This document shows, piece after piece, positions 2,835 to 53,251 of a stretch of 64,000 nucleotides of DNA (the stretch's first letter is position 1; each line of letters begins with the position of its first letter). The position numbers and the translations under genes were made by a program. Under the pieces are notes generated by a model, which made no database searches, was not told where the DNA came from, and saw nothing but the letters and a program-made list of their open reading frames with translations. Source of the DNA: Halanaerobiales bacterium (GTDB taxonomy: Bacteria; Bacillota; Halanaerobiia; Halanaerobiales; M55B127); contig JAIPEX010000002.1 of assembly GCA_021736945.1 (NCBI GenBank), forward strand, positions 7,486 through 71,485, given 5' to 3'.

Positions 2835-3839
2835 TTATTTTACAAACCAAGGTTCCGGAATATATATATCTTTACCTATTTTAATAGCGTAACGATCTGA
2901 CATTCCGGCAATATAGTCGATAATAATCTGTTCAATATTATCATTTGTTTCTTTCAGAAATTCTTTAGGTAATCTCTCAGGTTTTTCTTTGTAAAAATCA
3001 TAAAGCAATTTTATTAATCTTTTCGCTTTATCTTCTTCTTTTTTTGCAGATGATCCAAAATATATATTTTCAAAAAGGAATTTTCTTAATTTTTGAGTTG
3101 CTTTATAAACCTTTTCCCCTCTTTTTATTTCATTTTTGTTTTCGCTTTCAATAATCATATCTCTTACCATTGTATCTATTCTTTGAGAATGAGTTTCCCC
3201 TAATACTTTAATTGCTTTCTGTGGTAAATCTTTTAACTCAATTAGACCGGCTCTTAAAGCATCATCTATATCATGATTAATATAAGCAATACGATCTGCA
3301 ATTCTAACAATACATCCTTCAAGAGTCTCAGGTTTATTTTCTCCAGTATGATTAGAAATCCCATCTCTAACTTCTTTTGTTAAATTTAAACCTGGCATAT
3401 CTTCTTTCCTTTTTTCCAATACATTTACTACTCTTAAACTTTGCTTGTTGTGTGAAAACTCACCTTCACACACTTGGTTAATTGCCTCTTCCCCAGCATG
3501 ACCAAAGGGAGTATGCCCCAAATCATGTCCTAAAGATATTGCTTCTGTTAAATCTTCATTTAATCTTAAACTTCTAGCGATTGTTCTTGCAATTTGAGAG
3601 ACTTCTAAAGTATGAGTTAATCTAGTTCTATAATGGTCACCTTCAGGAGCTATAAATACTTGAGTTTTATGTTTTAGTCTCCTAAAAGCTTTTGAATGAA
3701 TGATTCTATCTCTATCTCTTTGAAAACAGGTTCTAAAATCATCTGGTTCTTCTTTATATTGTCTCCCTGCACTATTAATACTAAGTTGAGCAAATTTTGA
3801 GAGTTCTCGTTTTTCTTTTTCTTCAAGATATTTTCTCAT
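2835..3839 (-). CDS. dGTP triphosphohydrolase-like HD-domain protein
   Basis: Motifs: FQRDRDRIIHSKAFRRLKHKTQVF, HYRTRLTHTLEVSQIAR, GHDLGHTPFGH. Confidence 0.85.
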   Translation of the reverse strand: MRKYLEEKEKRELSKFAQLSINSAGRQYKEEPDDFRTCFQRDRDRIIHSKAFRRLKHKTQVFIAPEGDHYRTRLTHTLEVSQIARTIARSLRLNEDLTEAISLGHDLGHTPFGHAGEEAINQVCEGEFSHNKQSLRVVNVLEKRKEDMPGLNLTKEVRDGISNHTGENKPETLEGCIVRIADRIAYINHDIDDALRAGLIELKDLPQKAIKVLGETHSQRIDTMVRDMIIESENKNEIKRGEKVYKATQKLRKFLFENIYFGSSAKKEEDKAKRLIKLLYDFYKEKPERLPKEFLKETNDNIEQIIIDYIAGMSDRYAIKIGKDIYIPEPWFVK

Positions 3840-3942: not shown

Positions 3943-6606
3943 TCATTCTTTATCTTCTAATTGAGCTTGAGCAGCAGACAATCTAGCGATTGGGACTCTA
4001 AATGGAGAACAAGATACATAATCTAATCCAGCTCTATGACAGAATTTCACAGAACTTGGTTCTCCGCCGTGTTCTCCACAAATACCAACTTTTAAGTCAT
4101 TTCTTGTAGAGCGACCTTTTTCTACTCCAATTTTCATTAACTCTCCGACTCCTGGTTGGTCTAAGACTTGAAACGGATTATCCTCAAAAATATTATCCTC
4201 TATATATTGTGCTAAGAATTTCCCTTCTGCATCATCACGACTAAAGCCGTAAGTAGTTTGAGTTAGGTCATTAGTCCCAAAGGAAAAGAATTCTGCTTCT
4301 TTAGCTATTTTATCGGCTGTAACACAAGCTCTTGGAAGTTCAATCATTGTACCAATTGAGTAATCTAATTCAACTCCTAATTCTTCTAATACTTCTTCAG
4401 CAGCTTTTTTTGCCACCTCTTTGGTTATTTCTAATTCACTAATATCAGAAACTAGCGGAATCATCACTTCCGGAGTTACTTCCTTGCCTTCAAGTACTAA
4501 TTCTCCTGCCGCTTCAAAAATTGCTCTCACTTGCATTGCATATATCTCAGGATAGCTGACACCTAATCTACAACCACGGTGTCCTAGCATTGGATTGACT
4601 TCTTCAAGTCTTTCCATAGCTTTAAGCATATTCTGTTTTTCTTTTAATTTTTCTTCATCATTACCTTTAATTTTTAATTCTGTTACTTCTACAAGTAATT
4701 CATCATGATCAGGTAAAAATTCATGTAGTGGTGGATCTAATAGTCTTATAGTAACTGGTCTTGCACCCATAGCTTCAAAAATACCTTTGAAGTCTTCTTT
4801 CTGCATGGGCTGTAATTTATCTAAAGCTTCTTTTCTTGTTTCTTTATCTGCTGCAAGTATCATATCTTGTACGATGGGTAAACGATCTTCTGCAAAGAAC
4901 ATATGCTCTGTTCTTGTCAAGCCAATACCTTCTGCACCATATTCAATTGCTTTAGCAGCATCTTCTGGAGTATCAGCGTTAGTTCTAACTCCAAGTGTTC
5001 TAAATTGATCTGCCCATTCCATAATCTGTTCAAAGTTTTCATCCATTTCTGGGTCAATTGTAGGAGCAACTCCATATGATACTTCACCATTTCCACCATC
5101 AATTGTAATATATTCATCTTTTTTAATAGTACGTCCATCTACAAAAAATTGTTCTTTTTCATAATCTACATCAATATCTTCACAACCTGCAACAGCTGGT
5201 TTACCCATACCACGAGCTACTACTGCAGCATGACTTGTCATTCCACCGCGAGAAGTTAATACACCCTGAGCAGCTGCCATACCATGGATATCTTCAGGGG
5301 AAGTTTCAGTTCTTACTAGAATGACTTCTTCACCTGCATCACCGCGTTCTGCAGCTTCATCAGAATCAAATACTACTTTACCTGAAGCCGCTCCTGGGGA
5401 TGCATCTAATCCAACAGCTAAAATATCAACATCTGCATCTGGATCTATTCTCTTATGGAGTAACTGGTCTAATTTCTTAGGTTCAATTCTTTGTACTGCA
5501 GTTTCTTTATCGATTAGTCCTTCATCTACCATATCTACTGCAATTTTGACTGCAGCACTTGCAGTTCTTTTACCAGTTCTTGTTTGAAGCATAAATAATT
5601 CGCCTTGTTGTATGGTAAATTCAACATCTTGAACATCTTTATAATGTTGCTCTAATTTTTCAAAAATTTCAACTAATTGGTCATAGGCTTTAGGCATATC
5701 ATTTTTTAATTCGGAAATATCTTTTGGAGTACGAACACCTGAAACAACATCTTCACCCTGAGCGTTCTTTAAATATTCACCATAATATTTCTTTTCACCA
5801 GTAGAAGGATTACGGGTAAATGCTACCCCAGTACCACAATTTTCTCCCATATTACCATAAACCATAGTTTGTACATTAACAGCAGTTCCCCAATGATGTG
5901 GTATATCATTTAGATTTCTATAACTAATAGCTCTTTCATTATTCCATGAACCAAATACAGCTGTAATAGCTTTCCATAGTTGTTCTTTGGGATCTTCTGG
6001 GAATTCAACACCTGTCTCTTTTTTAATATATGCTTTAAATTCTTCAACAAGTTCTTTTAAAGCTTCAACTCCTAAATCAGTATCCACTTCAGCGTTGTAT
6101 TCTTCTTTCTTTTCTTCAATTATTTCTTCAAAATCACTTCCATCCATACCTAGAACAACATTACCATACATTTGAACAAATCTACGATATGAATCATAAG
6201 CAAATCTTTCATTACCTGTTTGTTTTGCTAAACCCTTGACAGTTACATCATTTAATCCTAGATTTAATACAGTATCCATCATACCAGGCATTGATTCTCT
6301 TGCTCCAGATCTAACTGAAACTAATAAAGGATCATCAGGATCTCCAAAATCTTTACCCATTAGGTTTTCTAATCTATCTAAATTTTCTTCTACTTCTTCT
6401 TCTAAGCCTTCTGGATAATTTTCATCATTTTCGTAATATAAAGTACATACTTCAGTAGTTATAGTAAATCCTGGTGGGACATTGATTCCCAAATTAGTCA
6501 TCTCTGCTAAATTGGCACCTTTACCACCTAGTAAGTTTTTTAATCCGGTTCTACCATCAGCTTCTCCACCACCGAAAAAATATACATATTTTTGTTCTTC
6601 TGACAT
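3943..6606 (-). CDS. ppdK: pyruvate, phosphate dikinase
   Basis: 887 aa. It has an N-terminal ATP-grasp region, the phospho-His swivel motif GGMTSHAAVVARGMG, and C-terminal PEP-utilizer TIM motifs (FFSFGTNDLTQ, GICGEHGG). Confidence 0.95.
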   Translation of the reverse strand: MSEEQKYVYFFGGGEADGRTGLKNLLGGKGANLAEMTNLGINVPPGFTITTEVCTLYYENDENYPEGLEEEVEENLDRLENLMGKDFGDPDDPLLVSVRSGARESMPGMMDTVLNLGLNDVTVKGLAKQTGNERFAYDSYRRFVQMYGNVVLGMDGSDFEEIIEEKKEEYNAEVDTDLGVEALKELVEEFKAYIKKETGVEFPEDPKEQLWKAITAVFGSWNNERAISYRNLNDIPHHWGTAVNVQTMVYGNMGENCGTGVAFTRNPSTGEKKYYGEYLKNAQGEDVVSGVRTPKDISELKNDMPKAYDQLVEIFEKLEQHYKDVQDVEFTIQQGELFMLQTRTGKRTASAAVKIAVDMVDEGLIDKETAVQRIEPKKLDQLLHKRIDPDADVDILAVGLDASPGAASGKVVFDSDEAAERGDAGEEVILVRTETSPEDIHGMAAAQGVLTSRGGMTSHAAVVARGMGKPAVAGCEDIDVDYEKEQFFVDGRTIKKDEYITIDGGNGEVSYGVAPTIDPEMDENFEQIMEWADQFRTLGVRTNADTPEDAAKAIEYGAEGIGLTRTEHMFFAEDRLPIVQDMILAADKETRKEALDKLQPMQKEDFKGIFEAMGARPVTIRLLDPPLHEFLPDHDELLVEVTELKIKGNDEEKLKEKQNMLKAMERLEEVNPMLGHRGCRLGVSYPEIYAMQVRAIFEAAGELVLEGKEVTPEVMIPLVSDISELEITKEVAKKAAEEVLEELGVELDYSIGTMIELPRACVTADKIAKEAEFFSFGTNDLTQTTYGFSRDDAEGKFLAQYIEDNIFEDNPFQVLDQPGVGELMKIGVEKGRSTRNDLKVGICGEHGGEPSSVKFCHRAGLDYVSCSPFRVPIARLSAAQAQLEDKE

Positions 6607-6835
6607 TAAATTTATACCTCCTCTAGTTTGTTTGAAATATTAGGCTACTATATTAGTATATAATAACAATTAAATATATTTAAATTTTAACTAATATATC
6701 TATTTGTTATTAACCACCTCCTGAAAATTAATACTGCAGTAATAGGTTATATTTTTGTTATAAATTACAATTAACTTTACATGCAATTATAAATATTCAA
6801 TACAAAACTTAAAATACCTGCTTGAAATATTGATT

Positions 6836-42998: not shown

Positions 42999-45497
42999 TT
43001 ATTTCACAACTATATTCACTAATTTTTTTGGTATAACTATTGTCTTTACAATCTCTTTGTCCTTAGTATATTTTTGGACTTTATCCTGCTTAAATACTTT
43101 TTCTTTCAATGCTTCTTCTGAAATATTAGCATCAACATCTACTCTGTCTCGTACCCTACCATTGATTTGGATTACAATAGTAATTTCATCTTTTTTAGCC
43201 GCTTCTTCCTCAAATTCTGGCCAATCAGCCCGGTGTATACTACTTTCGTGGCCGATCTTATGCCAAAGCTCTTCTGTCATATGTGGAGCAAACGGAGCCA
43301 GCATCAATAATATTTTTTCAGTAACAAAAGCAAGCAATTCTTCATTAAGTTGGTTTTTATTATCTGCAAGATAACTATATAGTTCATTGACTAATTCCAT
43401 TATAGCACTTATAGCAGTATTAAAGTTTAATCTTTCTGAAACATCTTCAGTAACTTTTTGAATTGTTTCATGAAGCTTTCTATGAAGTTCTTTTTCATCT
43501 TCATTTAAATTATCTTGGTCAATATTAATTTTGTTAACATCAACTTTTTTTATTGAGTTAATGTTTTCGGCAACAAATCTCCATACTCGGTTTAAAAATC
43601 TATTTGCACCTTCAACTCCTGCTTCACTCCATTCTAAATCTTTTTCAGGGGGAGAAGCAAAAAGGATAAATAACCGCGCTGTATCTGCTCCATATTCATC
43701 AAGAATTCGGCTTGGATCTACAACATTACCTTTTGACTTAGACATCTTATCTCCGTCTTTAAGAACCATGCCCTGTGCTAACCATTTTGTAAATGGTTCA
43801 CCTTCTTCTAATAGGTTTAGATCTCTTAGTACTTTTGTAAAGAATCTAGCATAAAGAAGGTGTAATATAGCATGTTCTATACCTCCTATATATTGATCCA
43901 CTGGGAACCAATCGTCTGCACTTTCAGGAGAAAATGGAAGATTTTTATTATGAGGATCAATGTATCTTAAGAAATACCAAGAAGAATCAACAAAGGTATC
44001 CATTGTATCAATTTCTCTTTTAGCATTCCCACCACATTTCGGACATGTTGTATTTACAAAGTCTTCCGCTTTAGCTAATGGTGAGATTCCTGTTGCTGAA
44101 AATTCAACATCGTTTGGTAATAAAACCGGTAAATCCTTTTCATCTACAGGGACAGTACCACATTGGTCACAATATACAATAGGAATTGGTGCACCCCAAT
44201 ATCTTTGCCTAGATATCAACCAATCTCTTAGTCGATAATTAGTCTCTCTTTTACCAATATTTTTTTCTTCCATTTCTTCAGCAATTTTTTCAAAAGCTTC
44301 CTCTACATTTAATCCATTATATTTATTTGAATTGATTAAATATCCTTCTTCACTATATGCTTCTTCCATTTTTGAACCATCAAGTTTTTCTTCTTTATCA
44401 TGGGGTTGGATCACTGCTTTTATAGGGAGATCATATTTTTTTGCAAAATCAAAGTCGCGCTGATCATGAGCAGGGACTGCCATGATTGCTCCTGTACCAT
44501 ACTCCATTAAAACATAATTTGCAATTAAAATAGGTATTTCTTCTCCAGTCATCGGATTAGTAGCGTAACTACCTGTATATATACCCTCTTTTTCAGTTTC
44601 AGGTGAAGTTCTTTCAACATCTTCCTGATTTTTTACCTTTTTTATGAAATTTCTTATCTCTTTTTCATTTTCTTTCCCACTTATTAATTCATCTACATAA
44701 GGATGTTCTGGAGATAATACCATATAAGTAGCCCCATAGATTGTATCAGGACGAGTCGTAAATACTTCTAGATCTTTATCAATTTCTTCAATTGGGAAAT
44801 TTATGCTCATCCCTTCACTTCTACCAATCCAATTTTTCTGCATTGTTTTAACTCTTTCCGGCCAATCAAGCTCTTCATGCCCCTCCAGTAATTCATCCGC
44901 ATACTCAGTTATCTTTAAAAACCATTGTTCTAACTCTTTTTGCTCTACCAATGTGTCACAACGCTCACATCGATTATTAACAACCTGTTCATTTGCTAAA
45001 ACTGTATCACAGCTTGGACACCAATTAACAGGTTGTTCTTTTTTATATGCAAGGTCATTTTCAAACATTTTTATGAAAAACCACTGAGTCCATTTATAAT
45101 AATCCGGTTCTGCAGTAGCAACTTCACGATCCCAATCATAACTAAGACCCATAGCCTTCATTTGTTTTTTCATACTTTCAATATTCTCCCAAGTCCACTC
45201 TCTGGGATGAATATTACCATGTTTTATTGCTGCATTTTCGGCAGGTAAGCCAAATGCATCCCAACCCATAGGATGTAGGACATTAAATCCTTCCATTCTC
45301 TTAAAACGTGCAATTACATCTCCTATAGAATATACTCTTACATGTCCCATATGTAATTTTCCTGAGGGATAAGGAAACATCTCTAAGACATAATAATTAT
45401 CTTTTTCATCTTTATTTTTTGCCTTATACAGTCTTTTTTCATCCCAAACTTTCTGCCATTTTTTTTCAATCTCTTCAAAATCATAATGATTCTGCAT
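42999..45497 (-). CDS. leuS: leucine--tRNA ligase
   Basis: HIGH motif (HMGHVRVY), KMSKS, and CP1 editing domain with zinc cysteines. 832 aa. Confidence 0.97.
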
Positions 45498-45529: not shown

Positions 45530-45782
45530 TTTAAAATAAAAAAACTCCTCCCGGTCAAGGGACGAGTTGTTTACCCGTGGTACCACCCTAATAGATAGTA
45601 ATAATCCACTTATAAAAAGTTAACGCCTTTATTACGATACTGTCTAATCTAAAGTTCAACAGTATGGACTCCAGAACGAGTTCAATATCCTACAATATTG
45701 CTTTCCAGCTGCCAGCAACTCTCTTTGTAAGTGTAAAATATTTACTACTTTCCTTCATAGTCCACTAATTTTATTCATCTTT
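45530..45782 (-). promoter_or_regulatory. T-box riboswitch leader, leucine (CUC specifier), controlling leuS
   Basis: Read on the minus strand:
- The Stem I base is GGACU.../...AGUCC.
- AGUA and AGAGAG boxes are present.
- The specifier loop is UUGAA-CUC-G.
- The conserved T-box is UAGGGUGGUACCACGGG (45574..45588).
- The terminator is CUCGUCCC-uugacc-GGGAGGAG, followed by a U7 run. Confidence 0.85.
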
Positions 45783-49226: not shown

Positions 49227-49724
49227 TTAGAAAGGTTCAAAACTTTGTTCAGCCCACCAGTCCTCTTTAAGCATTTCATATTGTTCTTGGAAAAAATTCA
49301 AATGCTGATATTCCCATTTAATAATTCTTTCATATAATTCTTTAGCCTTTTCTGATTTAGTATTATTAACAGCGTTCTTATAATAATCAATTGCTTCTTT
49401 TTCCATTTTAACACCAATTCCAAAAACAGATAATGAAAAAGACAAATTTTCTTTTTCTATCTTATCCCACTTAAATATTCTGGGCTTTTCCGGTGGCTTC
49501 ATTTCATCAACTGAAAATTCTATCTCTCCACCATCTTCCAAGCTTTCATAAAGTTCCTTAAGCCAATCAATATGCTTTAATTCTTCATTTGCTAATTTTT
49601 TAAAGGATTTGCTGATCTCCTCTTCTTCTATCCTATTAGCTGCCATATTATAAACCTGGTAACCCTCATTTTCATTTAAAATAGCTTCTTTAATCACTTC
49701 TAATTCTTTATTGGACATTTTCAA
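49227..49724 (-). CDS. ferritin-like / rubrerythrin-family diiron protein (no rubredoxin domain)
   Basis: Two E...E..H four-helix-bundle motifs (NEELKHIDW and KWEYQHLNFF, each with an upstream Glu). Confidence 0.7.
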   Translation of the reverse strand: MKMSNKELEVIKEAILNENEGYQVYNMAANRIEEEEISKSFKKLANEELKHIDWLKELYESLEDGGEIEFSVDEMKPPEKPRIFKWDKIEKENLSFSLSVFGIGVKMEKEAIDYYKNAVNNTKSEKAKELYERIIKWEYQHLNFFQEQYEMLKEDWWAEQSFEPF

Positions 49725-49878
49725 GCCCCCTTCTATTTTATTATTCTACAATCATCAATTGAATATGTAAACATTATTTATTATATATAATTAGATTTTG
49801 ACTATATATTTTAAATTATATCCTAGGTCAAATATATCAGATCAGGTCCCTATTTTCAAGTAAGTTAAGTTGTTAAAA

Positions 49879-49907
49879 TTGACATATATTTCAAAATAAA
49901 ATATAAT
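49879..49907 (+). promoter_or_regulatory. sigma-A promoter of the hutP-like gene
   Basis: Consensus TTGACA-17 nt-TATAAT. The GAGGAGG SD and the ATG at 49939 lie downstream. Confidence 0.6.
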
Positions 49908-49938
49908 TAAAGAAAATTCATGTGAGGAGGCTTACATA

Positions 49939-50349
49939 ATGGAAAAAAGCCTTATTATAGCTAAAGCCGCTTTAAAACTAGCAATTTCAGACCGGCAAGA
50001 AGAAAACAAATTAAAAAAACAATTCTTAGATGATGAGGGAATAAAATCCGCAGCTCTTGATTTTGGAGGAGAATACAATAAATCTGTAAAAAAAATTATT
50101 GAAAATGCAGTAATTGCAGCTCGTAGAGAAAATTTAATCAATGAGACTCACTCCAATCAGGGTGCTGTGGCTGGTGCTGCTCATGAAGCTTTAAAACAAA
50201 TCATGGGAAGTGCAGTAGGCTTAAATATTGGTGGTAAAATTGGAATTGCTCGAAAAGACGACCACTTAGTTGTTGCTATCTTTTTTGGAGTTGGCATGTT
50301 AAATTTAAATGAAGTAGCAGTTGGACTCAGCCACAGAACTATTACCTAA
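49939..50349 (+). CDS. HutP-family RNA-binding antiterminator homologue
   Basis: 136 aa. It aligns by eye along its whole length with B. subtilis HutP as I remember it: DDEGIKSAALDFGGEY vs ERDGWKVCLGKVGSM, GAVAGAAHEALKQI vs HALYHATMEALHGV, and the C-terminal EVAVGLSHRTI vs HETFGVGINHI. Confidence 0.7.
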   Translation: MEKSLIIAKAALKLAISDRQEENKLKKQFLDDEGIKSAALDFGGEYNKSVKKIIENAVIAARRENLINETHSNQGAVAGAAHEALKQIMGSAVGLNIGGKIGIARKDDHLVVAIFFGVGMLNLNEVAVGLSHRTIT

Positions 50350-50364
50350 ATATAATTTAAATTC

Positions 50365-50393
50365 TTGACATTCTTAGTTATTATATGTATAAT
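50365..50393 (+). promoter_or_regulatory. strong sigma-A promoter (extended -10) of the ABC transporter leader
   Basis: TTGACA (50365..50370), 17 nt spacer, TG-n-TATAAT (-10 hexamer at 50388..50393). Confidence 0.7.
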
Positions 50394-50409
50394 GATAAAA
50401 ATCGAAAAT

Positions 50410-50433
50410 TGGTAATATGGTAATATGGTAGGA
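50410..50433 (+). repeat. three tandem 8-nt direct repeats in the leader RNA (TGGTAATA TGGTAATA TGGTAGGA)
   Basis: I read these directly from the sequence, about 10 nt downstream of the predicted transcription start. They are a candidate binding site for a protein with threefold symmetry. Confidence 0.8.
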
Positions 50434-50472
50434 GAAAATAATTAGGAAATCTCTATGGATTTCTATGTCTTT

Positions 50473-50500
50473 AAACACTCCTTCCCGGAGTGTTTTTTTT
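50473..50500 (+). terminator. intrinsic terminator (attenuator) in the ABC transporter leader
   Basis: AAACACTCC-ttccc-GGAGTGTTT forms 9 bp and is followed by a T run that extends the 3-prime arm through 50500. It lies between the promoter and the SBP start codon. Confidence 0.8.
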
Positions 50501-50549
50501 ATTTCTCTTTCCAAAACCAAATCCACAAAAAAATAAGGAGAGATGTAAA

Positions 50550-51542
50550 ATGGTAATTAATGGTAAGAAATCTCTAATTGTAGTATCTATTCTCATTTCT
50601 GTAACTCTATTCTGTTTGGTAACTTTTCAGCACTCAGCTCAGGCACAAGACAAGGTATTTAAAATTGGAATCTCACAATTCGTAGAACACCCTGCTTTAG
50701 ATTCAGCTAGGAAAGGTTTTATCGAAGGTCTTAACGAAGCTGGTTTTATTGAAGGTGAAAACCTTGAAATAAATCTTGAAAATGCCCAAGCTGACATGTC
50801 TACTACTCAAACAATTGCACAAAAATTTGAAAATCAAAATTTAGACCTAGTTTTGGCTATTGCTACTCCTAATGCCCAAGCTGCTGCTGGCACTCTTTCT
50901 GATACACCACTGGTTATTACAGCTGTAACAGATCCGGTAGCTGCAGGTTTAGTTAAAGACCTTGTTGATAAGGAAAATGCAATTACTGGAACTACTGATA
51001 TGAATCCAGTTGGAAAACAACTTGAATTAATAAAGGAATTTTTACCTAACGCTAAAAACATAGGTATTTTATATAATAGTGGTGAGGTTAATTCAAAAGT
51101 ACAAGTTGATATTGCAAAGCAAATCGCACCAGAAAAAAATATTAAAATAATTGAAGCTACTGCTACTAATACTAGTGAAGTTTCATTAGCAACTTCATCC
51201 TTAATAGGTAAGGTAGATGCTATTTATTTACCCACGGACAATACAATCGCTTCTGCTGTGCCCTCAATAATGAAAATTGCCAAGAAAAATAATATACCAG
51301 TCTTTGCTTCCGAAAAAGGACAAGTTCAAAACGGCGCTATAGCTACTAGAGGGTTAGATTACTTTTTGCTAGGTAAACAAACAGGGCAAATTGCGGCACG
51401 AGTTTTAAATGGCGAAAAACCAGCATCAATACCTATTACAGGTTCTAAAAACCTTCAATTAATTATAAACGAAGAAGCTATTAATAGTTTCAATTTAGAA
51501 ATTCCTGAAAGTATAAAAGATGAAATAGAAATCCGATTATAA
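50550..51542 (+). CDS. ABC transporter substrate-binding protein, ABC_sub_bind (PF04392-like) family
   Basis: A signal peptide ends AQA-QD. The motifs FKIGISQFVEHPALDSARKGF..GL...G...G.N and DLVLAIATPNAQAA follow. The start is at the ATG at 50550 with an AAGGAG SD. The ORF-track start (50490) lies inside the terminator. Confidence 0.85.
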   Translation: MVINGKKSLIVVSILISVTLFCLVTFQHSAQAQDKVFKIGISQFVEHPALDSARKGFIEGLNEAGFIEGENLEINLENAQADMSTTQTIAQKFENQNLDLVLAIATPNAQAAAGTLSDTPLVITAVTDPVAAGLVKDLVDKENAITGTTDMNPVGKQLELIKEFLPNAKNIGILYNSGEVNSKVQVDIAKQIAPEKNIKIIEATATNTSEVSLATSSLIGKVDAIYLPTDNTIASAVPSIMKIAKKNNIPVFASEKGQVQNGAIATRGLDYFLLGKQTGQIAARVLNGEKPASIPITGSKNLQLIINEEAINSFNLEIPESIKDEIEIRL

Positions 51543-51576
51543 ATTAAGTAATAGACAAAATATTGGAGGGATTGAC

Positions 51577-52467
51577 ATGTCTTTCGGTTTTTTAATTACT
51601 TCACTAGAACAGGGATTAATATATGGAATAATGGCAATAGGAGTTTATATAACATTTAGAGTACTAGATTTTGCAGACTTAACTGTAGACGGCAGCATTA
51701 CTTTAGGGGCTGCCGTTTCCTCCAGGCTCATAATAATGGGTTATAATCCATTTTTAACACTAATTGTTGCTACAGTAGCTGGAGGTATCTCGGGCTCTTT
51801 TACTGGCTTTTTAAATACAAAATTAAAAATAGCACCATTATTATCGGGAATTTTAACTATGACTTCCTTGTTTTCAATTAACTTAAGAATTATGGGCAGA
51901 CCAAATATACCTTTGTTATCTGATGATACAATTTTTGATATATTCAATGTACCACTTTCTCTCTCATCTTCCAGTGAACTAATATTAATATTAATTGTAG
52001 TTTTATTAGTATTAATCTCACTAGTTTTATTTTTAAAAACAAAACTAGGATTTGCACTACGTGCAACAGGTGACAATCCTGCTATGGTTAGAAGTATGGC
52101 TATAAATACAAAAAGTATAAAGATGATTGGTTTAATAATAGCTAATAGTTTTGTTGCATTATCTGGTGCTTTAATCTGTCAGTATCAAGGCTTTGCTGAT
52201 ATAAGTATGGGAATCGGTACAATAATTGCCGGATTGGCTTCTGTAATCATTGGTGAGGTTATTTTTGGTAGTGAAAAACTATATTTTGTAATTCCTGGTA
52301 TTATAGGTGGCTCAATTTTATATCGAGGTAGTATTTCATTTGCTTTAATGAGTGGTTTTGCTGCTTCAGATTTAAAACTATTAACAGCACTTATTGTAAT
52401 TGTTTTTCTTTCAACCCCAAAAATTAAATCAGCAGTAGGAGGTAAGTTTAATGTTAAAGCTAATTAA
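51577..52467 (+). CDS. ABC transporter permease (BPD_transp_2-type, partner of the PF04392 SBP)
   Basis: Polytopic membrane protein with the N-terminus LEQGLIYGIMAIGVYITFRVLDFADLTVDGS, which is typical of this transporter family. Confidence 0.85.
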   Translation: MSFGFLITSLEQGLIYGIMAIGVYITFRVLDFADLTVDGSITLGAAVSSRLIIMGYNPFLTLIVATVAGGISGSFTGFLNTKLKIAPLLSGILTMTSLFSINLRIMGRPNIPLLSDDTIFDIFNVPLSLSSSSELILILIVVLLVLISLVLFLKTKLGFALRATGDNPAMVRSMAINTKSIKMIGLIIANSFVALSGALICQYQGFADISMGIGTIIAGLASVIIGEVIFGSEKLYFVIPGIIGGSILYRGSISFALMSGFAASDLKLLTALIVIVFLSTPKIKSAVGGKFNVKAN

Positions 52468-53251
52468 TGTAAGTAAAACTTTTAACCAAAATACAGTTAA
52501 TGAAACAAAAGCTTTAAAAGAAATCGATCTTAAAGTAAAAAACAATGATTTTATTACAATTGTAGGAGGAAATGGGGCCGGTAAGTCTACCCTTTTAAAT
52601 AGTATTGCAGGAGTTTTTGGATTAACTAAAGGAAAAATTATTTTATCAAATAAAGATATTACAAATATACCAGAATATAAGAGAGCAAAATTTATTGGAA
52701 GAGTATTCCAGGATCCCTTAATGGGAACTTCTCCTGAAATGACAATTGAAGAAAACCTATCAATGGCCTTAAATAAAAATTCCAAATTAACATTAAAATG
52801 GGCTCTAAATAAAAAGAAACGGAAAAAAATAAAACAACATTTGTCTGAAATTGATTTAGGTTTAGAAGATAGATTAGATACTAAAGTAAAACTTTTATCC
52901 GGAGGCCAGAGACAGGCTCTTACTCTTTTGATGGCTACTATAATTGAACCCGAATTATTATTACTAGATGAACATACTGCTGCTTTAGATCCGGCTACTG
53001 CCATAAAAATTAAAGATTTAACACAGCAAATTATTTCCAAACATAATATCACCACTTTGATGATCACCCATGATATGAAAGATGCCTTGAAATTTGGAAA
53101 TAGAATGCTAATGATGAATCATGGAGATATAATTATTGATATACAGGGTAAGACTAAAGAAAAAATGACAATAGATCATCTTTTAAAAATATTCCAGAAA
53201 AAAAATAAAAAAGGCTTTTATAATGATAGATCAATATTAAGTTTAGCCTAA
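52451..53251 (+). CDS. ABC transporter ATP-binding protein
   Basis: Walker A GGNGAGKST, signature LSGGQRQ, Walker B LLLLDEH, and an H-loop. Confidence 0.9.
   Translation: MLKLINVSKTFNQNTVNETKALKEIDLKVKNNDFITIVGGNGAGKSTLLNSIAGVFGLTKGKIILSNKDITNIPEYKRAKFIGRVFQDPLMGTSPEMTIEENLSMALNKNSKLTLKWALNKKKRKKIKQHLSEIDLGLEDRLDTKVKLLSGGQRQALTLLMATIIEPELLLLDEHTAALDPATAIKIKDLTQQIISKHNITTLMITHDMKDALKFGNRMLMMNHGDIIIDIQGKTKEKMTIDHLLKIFQKKNKKGFYNDRSILSLA

Follow-up and report, generated by a model that had tools for sequence, protein, structure and literature searches.

The stretch of DNA analysed here, referred to below as the window, comprises 64,000 nucleotides (nt) of contig JAIPEX010000002.1 (positions 7,486 to 71,485 of the forward strand) from a Halanaerobiales bacterium. 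It contains, one after the other on the same strand, a gene for a HutP-family protein, a leader with three 8-nt repeats and an intrinsic terminator, and the operon of an ABC transporter. This report deals with the leader and with the probable role of the HutP-like protein in gating transcription through it. The coordinates of all elements are listed in Table 1.

Table 1. Features of the hutP-like gene, the leader and the transporter operon in the window (SD, Shine-Dalgarno sequence).
Feature	Positions	Strand	Description
Promoter of hutP-like gene	49879..49907	+	TTGACA-17-TATAAT, 12/12 match
HutP-family gene	49939..50349	+	136 aa, Pfam PF09021; proposed trans-acting RNA-binding regulator
Promoter of leader	50365..50393	+	TTGACA 50365-50370, 17-nt spacer, TATAAT 50388-50393, 12/12 consensus matches
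Three 8-nt repeats	50411..50434	+	GGUAAUAU 50411-18, GGUAAUAU 50419-26, GGUAGGAG 50427-34; proposed protein-binding site
Repeat 3, putative antiterminator 5' strand	50427..50434	+	GGUAGGAG, pairs with CUCCUUCC at 50478-50485, 7/8 positions
Small hairpin P1	50446..50463	+	GAAAUC 50446-51 / GAUUUC 50458-63, loop ucuaug, -4.3 to -5.4 kcal/mol
Intrinsic terminator	50473..50500	+	AAACACUCC-uuccc-GGAGUGUUU, stem 50473-50495, 9 bp, U8 run, -11.5 kcal/mol
Putative antiterminator 3' strand	50478..50485	+	CUCCUUCC, upper part of terminator 5' arm plus loop
Post-terminator element, candidate anti-SD	50502..50513	+	UUUCUCUUUCCA; complements repeat 3 (UGGUAGGAGAAA, 11/12 positions including one G-U) and SD
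SD and start codon	50535..50556	+	GGAG 50537-40, ATG 50550
Operon, proposed to be regulated	50550..53251	+	PF04392 substrate-binding protein 50550-51542, permease 51577-52467, ATPase 52451-53251

The leader promoter begins 16 nt past the hutP-like gene's stop codon, and transcription is predicted to start near 50400. The original prediction had described an extended -10 promoter (TGnTATAAT). Its core, TTGACA-17-TATAAT, is a perfect match; the TG at 50386-87, however, directly abuts TATAAT (TGTATAAT) and is one base off, and a promoter scan detected no TG at the extended position. The threefold repeat lies about 10 nt past the predicted start, as had been claimed; in the register of that claim (UGGUAAUA) the repeats begin at 50410. 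A relaxed form of the repeat pattern (GGTARNNNGGTARNNNGGYAG) occurs once in the 64 kb, the expectation being 0.01 occurrences. The small hairpin P1 and the strong intrinsic terminator ahead of the Shine-Dalgarno (SD) sequence and the ATG are both present as had been described.

The third repeat is complementary to the upper part of the terminator 5' arm plus loop. This pairing, which had been proposed as an antiterminator, was found as claimed; antiterminator and terminator share positions 50478-50481 plus the loop and are thus mutually exclusive. In predicted folds, RNA ending at 50486 or 50490 adopts the hairpin and the antiterminator, and the full RNA adopts the terminator. For a comparison of leaders we used 16 orthologous genome leaders and 28 leaders from a metagenome scan for the RNA motif alone, 44 in total. 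Because the register of this pairing is not the same from clade to clade, we relied on duplex energies, controlled by shuffles and random loops, instead of column-wise covariation. The duplex of repeat 3 with the terminator arm and loop amounts to -9.8 kcal/mol in the window, where no other 12-mer of the leader competes with it, and to -9.0 to -10.7 kcal/mol across the 16 genome leaders, the best other 12-mer per leader being no better than -6.8. The 44 leaders represent 16 distinct repeat/terminator combinations, each of which retains the duplex, with energies from -7.0 to -11.8 kcal/mol. Among 14 tested variants, 14 different loops were found (ACCA, UUCCC, UCC, UCCC, UUGCC, UUACC, CCC, UAAC, AGCU, UGC, UUCU, CUUG, GCCA, UAUA). 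Beyond the GGAG:CUCC core, pairing to the GGUA portion of the repeat is stronger for these loops than for random ones, with a combined p of 5e-4; the per-variant probabilities of loop complementarity are 0.03-0.36, and the variants are not phylogenetically independent. The proposed switch is thus retained in 16 variants that differ in their loops.

The repeats themselves are likewise conserved. Their number, the 8-nt period and the GGUA core are unchanged in all 16 genome leaders, so that number and spacing withstood the comparison of orthologues, and the same holds for the 28 metagenome leaders. The repeat consensus is GGUAR-N3-GGUAR-N3-GGUAGGRG, the conserved terminator AACACUCC-loop-GGAGUGUU-U7, and the -35 and -10 boxes of the leader promoter are conserved in the orthologous leaders. 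The flanks and the insert between repeats and terminator vary: the distance is 25-39 nt in the clade of the window versus 81-96 nt in Halanaerobium, where a larger branched, structured insert takes the place of hairpin P1. Halanaerobium leaders keep repeats and terminator although their regulator is only about 67% identical to the window protein. Fifteen genome loci share the order hutP-like gene, leader, binding protein, permease and ATPase. The metagenome motif matches have a hutP-like gene directly upstream in 22 of 28 cases, and most of the other six are too short upstream to judge; in the 22 loci, a PF04392 gene lies downstream wherever the contig reaches far enough. The original prediction had named the adjacent HutP homologue as the protein that reads the repeats. 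At the level of sequence comparison this putative assignment gains support from the conserved repeats, from the linkage just described and from like repeats beside distant hutP-like genes.

One metagenome locus (L040) carries a three-repeat leader at 6657-6745 before a PF04392 transporter; the 6.6 kb that lie upstream of it do not contain a hutP-like gene. The upstream genes code for a membrane protein and a SelB-like factor, and a second, divergent PF04392 operon is located on the opposite strand. The regulator can thus presumably act in trans on unlinked operons.

Leaders of the same plan, with GGYAG-type repeats at an 8-nt period, one of which is complementary to the terminator 5' arm or loop, occur in other lineages. 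In four Limnochordales-like metagenome-assembled genomes (MAGs) of high GC content, GGCAGGAC GGCAGGAC GGCAGGUG stand upstream of a hutP-like gene that is followed by chorismate mutase; the strict three-repeat pattern matches three of these MAGs, and the fourth has one variant base. In Desulfotomaculaceae and Pelotomaculum, the repeats precede DAHP synthase, as do the motif leaders L046 and L061. Two of the DAHP synthase leaders (L013 and L046) possess two clusters of three repeats each, followed by a terminator, an arrangement that would fit, indirectly, a D3 hexamer with two RNA-binding faces. In Selenihalanaerobacter, five repeats follow one another with an exact 8-nt period, accompanied by GCGGUAGGAGU; the unit GGUAGGAG is present, and UAGGAGU pairs with the ACUCCUA of an AAACACUCC terminator. 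The terminator arm plus loop of Formimonas (CUCCUACC) exactly complements GGUAGGAG, the last repeat of L031 (GGCAGGA) faces a terminator arm plus loop UCCUGCU, and GGAGUA of Halanaerocella is complementary to the terminator UACUCC. A repeat doubling as partner of the terminator 5' arm is, according to these cases, a recurrent feature. The stem ACACUCC/GGAGUGU recurs in terminators of Halanaerobium, Pelotomaculum, Selenihalanaerobacter and Formimonas leaders.

Three further observations concern individual leaders. Upstream of the hutP-like/aro operon of Halanaerocella petrolearia (L037, 4800-4975), there are about 17 UAG triplets, among them four GUAG at an 8-nt period; this number is far above the six sites of one hexamer. 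About 100 nt upstream of hutP-like/aroH in five Pelotomaculum loci (L016, L017, L019, L021, L023), the terminator ACACUCC/GGAGUGU is accompanied by CCAGGAG, which is complementary to CUCCUG; these leaders show no clear triple repeat. Four DAHP synthase leaders (L013 3751-3830, L023 ~4023-4110, L028 ~3687-3770, L031 ~495-580) share the sequence ...GGYAGGRG(A)GGCGAUAAG..., which is followed 8-9 nt later by a conserved six-codon mini open reading frame (mini-ORF; M/L-x-L-W-S-x-stop), whose stop codon abuts the terminator. The SD of this mini-ORF (GGAGG) overlaps the last repeat; L046, L061 and the window lack the mini-ORF. The DAHP synthase leaders that possess it may have a ribosome-dependent layer involving a Trp codon.

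One may ask whether the leader is a product of chance: the terminator might merely end the hutP-like transcript or constitutively lower transporter expression, with repeats and complementarity being accidental or a by-product of AT-rich sequence. The folding energy of the whole leader is indeed not unusual compared with shuffled sequence (z -0.6), which is why our case rests on the conserved repeats and the switch and not on overall stability, and mononucleotide shuffles of repeat 3 reach the observed duplex energy in 2-14% of trials. We nevertheless judge this explanation very improbable: a consensus promoter sits between the hutP-like stop codon and the repeats, the motif is hardly expected in the window, repeat number and spacing persist at the above level of protein divergence and beyond, and repeat-plus-terminator leaders of the same plan, yet with different sequences, occur in four or more other lineages.

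The protein encoded upstream of the leader is, as judged from its sequence and its model, a very divergent relative of HutP. It matches PF09021 over its full length (E 1e-44, 152.1 bits versus a cut-off of 25), and 2,545 relatives were found at E <= 1e-5. The AlphaFold2 (AF2) model of the monomer has a pLDDT of 91.6 and a pTM of 0.87. When this model was compared with the PDB by means of Foldseek, the ten best matches were all HutP (1VEA, 1WPV, 1WMQ, 4OK9, 4H4L, 1WRN; E 6e-7 to 6e-5), with TMq values of 0.66-0.79 and sequence identities of 15-21%. phmmer and a 20-sequence profile matched no HutP chain in the PDB, though HutP chains are contained in it. The window protein had no NCBIfam hit, including the HutP equivalog NF002838, for which B. 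subtilis HutP scores 253 bits, and hhalign aligned the family of the window protein with HutP at a probability of 2%. Because sequence, profile and hhalign searches gave nothing usable, the link to the solved HutP structures is made only by Pfam and the predicted fold. No repeat leader was found in front of the hutP-like gene of the window.

The operon downstream of the leader starts, in agreement with the original prediction, with a PF04392-type binding protein (Pfam E 3e-86). Its best NCBIfam match is TrpX (NF041285), at 315.6 bits, which is below the 390-bit equivalog cut-off. According to PMC9382623, TrpX is part of a tryptophan uptake system in Streptococcus suis. The genes that follow directly upon hutP-like relatives elsewhere code for AroH-type chorismate mutase (CM_1), a chorismate mutase-aminotransferase fusion, DAHP synthase, prephenate dehydrogenase and EPSP synthase; such aromatic-pathway neighbours were seen in Pelotomaculum, Desulfotomaculaceae, Limnochordales-like MAGs, Heliorestis, Halanaerocella, Selenihalanaerobacter and Formimonas. 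The signal is thus likely an aromatic amino acid and not histidine, and for biosynthetic targets such as these, shut-off by the end product is to be expected.

In Pelotomaculum, trpE is located a few kb downstream of the hutP-like gene and is preceded by TRAP-type GAG repeats with 2-3-nt spacers and a terminator (L034 3990-4110; L026 4560-4660). With TRAP-type sites ahead of trpE and the 8-nt repeats close to hutP-like and aro genes, these genomes seem to use TRAP and the HutP-like system in parallel. Since trpE stands under TRAP-type leaders, the HutP-like protein of Pelotomaculum may sense tyrosine or phenylalanine and not tryptophan.

Behind the terminator of the window follows an element that is complementary both to repeat 3 and to the SD; spaced CC motifs come after it. 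The duplex of repeat and post-terminator element amounts to -16.8 kcal/mol, a value reached by 1 of 300 dinucleotide shuffles, and in most leaders of the window clade 0-2 of 300 shuffles attain the respective complementarity. The duplex of the post-terminator element and the SD is weaker (-9.8 kcal/mol, reached by 20/300 shuffles). In Halanaerobium, CUACCAG, the complement of repeat 1 (CUGGUAG), is found in the loop of an SD-sequestering hairpin. A second, translational layer of control by this anti-SD element is therefore possible, with moderate support in the window clade and weak support elsewhere.

The region of SD and start codon in the window also contains GAG 50538, UAA 50546 and UAA 50554 at an 8-nt period, possibly a weak second binding site. 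A clearer run, GAG-N5-UAG-N5-UAG, extends over SD and start of the PF04392 gene of L064 (reverse strand; AGGAGGAUGGUAGUAUGGUAGC). Most leaders of the window clade retain the triplet run, but it is disrupted in L008 and L010 (GGUUA), and Halanaerobium lacks it. Such runs suggest, speculatively, direct translational repression in some members. As a second three-repeat cluster this candidate was rejected: it is degenerate and not conserved in L008, L010 and Halanaerobium, and no second cluster precedes the terminator of the window. In addition, the first codons of the binding-protein gene (GUAAAAUGGUAAUUAAUGGUAAGAAAUCUCUA, within 50545-50576) resemble the leader (GUAAUAUGGUA ... UAGGAAAUCUCUA, within 50412-50455); perhaps the leader was duplicated from the 5' end of this gene, or both carry binding units.

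From these data we infer the following course of events. Transcription from about 50400 would expose, within about 10 nt, three single-stranded GGUAR units spaced 8 nt apart, and the HutP-family protein encoded just upstream would bind them, one face of a HutP-type hexamer corresponding to three triplets. Repeat 3 would be the sole segment able to pair with the top of the terminator 5' arm plus loop. In the absence of the protein, the antiterminator would form first and the polymerase would continue into the genes of the TrpX-like ABC transporter. Binding of the protein, which would probably carry an aromatic amino acid, would hold repeat 3; the terminator would then form, and transcription would stop near 50500. 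In read-through RNA, free repeats would pair with 50502-50513, whereas repeats held by the protein would free this element to cover the SD. Because repeat 3 doubles as the antiterminator strand and the cluster does not touch the terminator, binding should favour termination. On balance, we regard it as probable that the repeats bind an aromatic-amino-acid-sensing HutP-family protein and that control is TRAP-like attenuation and not HutP-like antitermination.

Several findings weigh against this interpretation. The antiterminator helix is weak (-5.8 kcal/mol versus -11.5 kcal/mol for the terminator), and as the terminator is far more stable, read-through without protein would hinge on kinetics, the order in which the structures fold being decisive. 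Positively controlled systems with an antiterminator protein usually have a strong default terminator. Repeats 1 and 2 of the window carry UAA and not the UAG required by Bacillus HutP, the period is 8 and not 7, and one three-repeat cluster stands before the terminator versus two used by HutP. Two related clades account for most of the 44 leaders, which makes the counts non-independent. For the anti-SD layer, support is weak in L008, L010 and Halanaerobium, where 12-31 of 300 shuffles do as well. Some hutP-like genes lack an aromatic-pathway neighbour: the next gene is a cytidylate kinase or kinase-like gene at L024 and L030, and the Sporomusa locus L066 likewise has no such neighbour. Finally, the low-confidence hhalign alignment (probability 2%) places His73 and His77 of HutP on the invariant Gly75 and Gly79 of a GAVAGA motif. 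Together with His138, these histidines reportedly belong to the L-histidine/Mg2+ site of B. subtilis HutP, His73 and His77 as metal ligands. With glycines at the two positions in this weak alignment, there is no ground for transferring the ligand chemistry from HutP or for expecting histidine as ligand.

The stability of the terminator is at the same time the main argument for the reverse direction of control, in which the ligand-loaded protein on the repeats would block the terminator, and the transporter would be induced by its substrate as histidine induces hut. The terminator exceeds the antiterminator in stability by about 5 kcal/mol, which might make termination the default state. Moreover, the gene order regulator, terminator, targets is the same as in hutP-terminator-hutH, and the sole studied member of the family is an antiterminator (PMC2425495). 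HutP, however, needs a second XAG cluster flanking the terminator's G-C-rich stem, and there is none in or beside the terminator of the window; the bound segment is here the antiterminator strand, so that binding should remove the antiterminator; and the motif also stands before operons of DAHP synthase and chorismate mutase, whose induction by the end product would be physiologically senseless. We therefore rate HutP-type antitermination as unlikely.

A further question is whether the repeats are read by an agent other than the neighbouring HutP-like protein, namely by TRAP, by a ribosome translating a tiny Trp leader peptide (AUG GUA AUA UGG UAG), or as part of a small-molecule riboswitch. 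Mini-ORFs with a UGG codon do lie inside the repeats of the window, and the conserved M-x-L-W-S-x mini-ORF of the Desulfotomaculaceae/Pelotomaculum DAHP synthase leaders, with its GGAGG overlapping the last repeat, would suit a ribosome. In the window, a leader peptide was rejected, as the mini-ORFs are not preceded by an SD, UGG is replaced by CGG in Halanaerobium, and the 33-codon ORF from AUG 50455 is not in frame in orthologues (L002, L004, L008). TRAP-type leaders occur in some of these genomes; they use GAG with 2-3-nt spacers versus the 5-nt spacers seen here, and the Pelotomaculum genomes that have 8-nt repeats before aro genes have their TRAP-type sites before trpE. A TRAP site in the window was ruled out on spacing, in comparison with the genuine TRAP-type leaders before trpE in L034 and L026. 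With respect to riboswitches, the original prediction had not recognised a known class, and the Rfam scans agree: among the covariance models, only a T-box at 45555-45767 reaches the gathering score in the 64-kb window, and a permissive scan gave nothing below E = 1 in 49700-50700 and nothing in 20 related loci. Furthermore, the window repeats are mostly unpaired in predicted folds, and no conserved folded aptamer was seen. We thus consider a different reader of the repeats quite improbable. The T-box leader (RF00230, 120.8 bits, minus strand) lies directly upstream of a leucyl-tRNA synthetase gene (42999-45497, minus strand; Pfam domains tRNA-synt_1_2 and Anticodon_1) and is ordinary.

Returning to attenuation by the HutP-like protein, a more general proposal can be formulated, for which we see about an even chance. 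The HutP-fold proteins that form a large, deep-branching clade across Halanaerobiales, Peptococcia/Desulfotomaculia, Heliobacteria and Limnochordia would represent an undescribed RNA-binding attenuation protein that senses aromatic amino acids and arose independently of TRAP as its second counterpart. Its RNA target would be GGYAR units with an 8-nt period, and it would control DAHP synthase/chorismate mutase operons and TrpX-like transporters via termination, possibly also via sequestration of the SD; in some genomes it would coexist with TRAP and sense Tyr or Phe there. In the searchable literature, which leaves subscription journals outside, we found no work on HutP-like or HutP-family proteins outside Bacillus and none that connects HutP with aromatic amino acids. 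The only HutP homologues treated in a 2025 review of RNA-binding antiterminators are those of Bacillus cereus and Bacillus anthracis. Known are the fold and, in general terms, the strategy of gating a terminator by repeats in single-stranded RNA; novel are the proposed RNA code, the set of targets, the likely ligand and the proposed direction of control. So far, HutP has been treated as a single-operon curiosity of Bacillus histidine catabolism. If the proposal is true, HutP-fold proteins regulate the supply of aromatic amino acids widely among anaerobic Bacillota, with a new RNA code (GGYAR, 8-nt period) and a logic reversed from that of HutP, and the system and TRAP are a clear example of convergence. 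Such a system would account for the control of aro and TrpX-like operons that have neither T-boxes nor TRAP sites, lend itself as an uncomplicated protein/RNA pair to ligand-controlled termination in synthetic biology, and provide an annotation rule for thousands of "HutP family protein" genes now named after histidine utilisation.

Three known systems are suited for comparison. HutP of B. subtilis binds three XAG per hexamer face, contacts two clusters that flank the terminator stem and opens the terminator; its RNA motif is UAG-N4-UAG-N4-UAG with a 7-nt period (PMC2425495). The window protein shares with HutP the fold and the Pfam family. In both cases, the regulator gene is located just upstream of a terminator that gates the target genes, for the window as proposed here, and three evenly spaced, short single-stranded units with U-A-purine fit one trimer face. 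In contrast, the site in the window reads UAA-N5-UAA-N5-UAG; its period is 8 nt, and each triplet has a conserved GG in front of it (GGUAR core). A single cluster lies 38 nt upstream of the terminator, whose 3' arm contains a single GAG, whereas HutP uses two flanking clusters. The site in the window overlaps the antiterminator, and binding is accordingly predicted to cause termination; a separate promoter serves the leader; and the targets belong to aromatic amino-acid transport and biosynthesis and not to histidine catabolism (hutHUIG). The proteins differ in that identity is low and neither a sequence or profile match to HutP chains nor an NCBIfam equivalog match was obtained.

In TRAP (MtrB) systems such as the Bacillus trp leader, binding of the triplets lets the terminator form; TRAP has its own fold and forms an 11-subunit ring. 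The above description of TRAP logic is partly also taken from the comparison in PMC2425495. The similarity to the window lies in repeated purine-rich triplets that overlap the antiterminator 5' strand, the binding of a protein being a prediction in our case, in a downstream pyrimidine element that can cover the SD in read-through RNA, as in the sequestration of the trpE SD, and in the aromatic amino-acid pathway. Unlike TRAP, the presumed regulator has the HutP fold, with no sign of a relation to TRAP found, and the RNA site consists of three repeats with 5-nt spacers versus 9-11 (G/U)AG with 2-3-nt spacers.

T-box-regulated TrpXYZ transporters, finally, for instance that of Streptococcus suis, resemble the proposed window system in the PF04392 transporter family and in control by a terminator in the leader (PMC9382623). 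They differ from it in their sensor: the leader of the window contains no T-box as judged by Rfam, and the sensor proposed here is a protein and not an uncharged tRNA. Likewise, the binding protein of the window scores below the TrpX equivalog cut-off, so that its substrate is not fixed by family membership.

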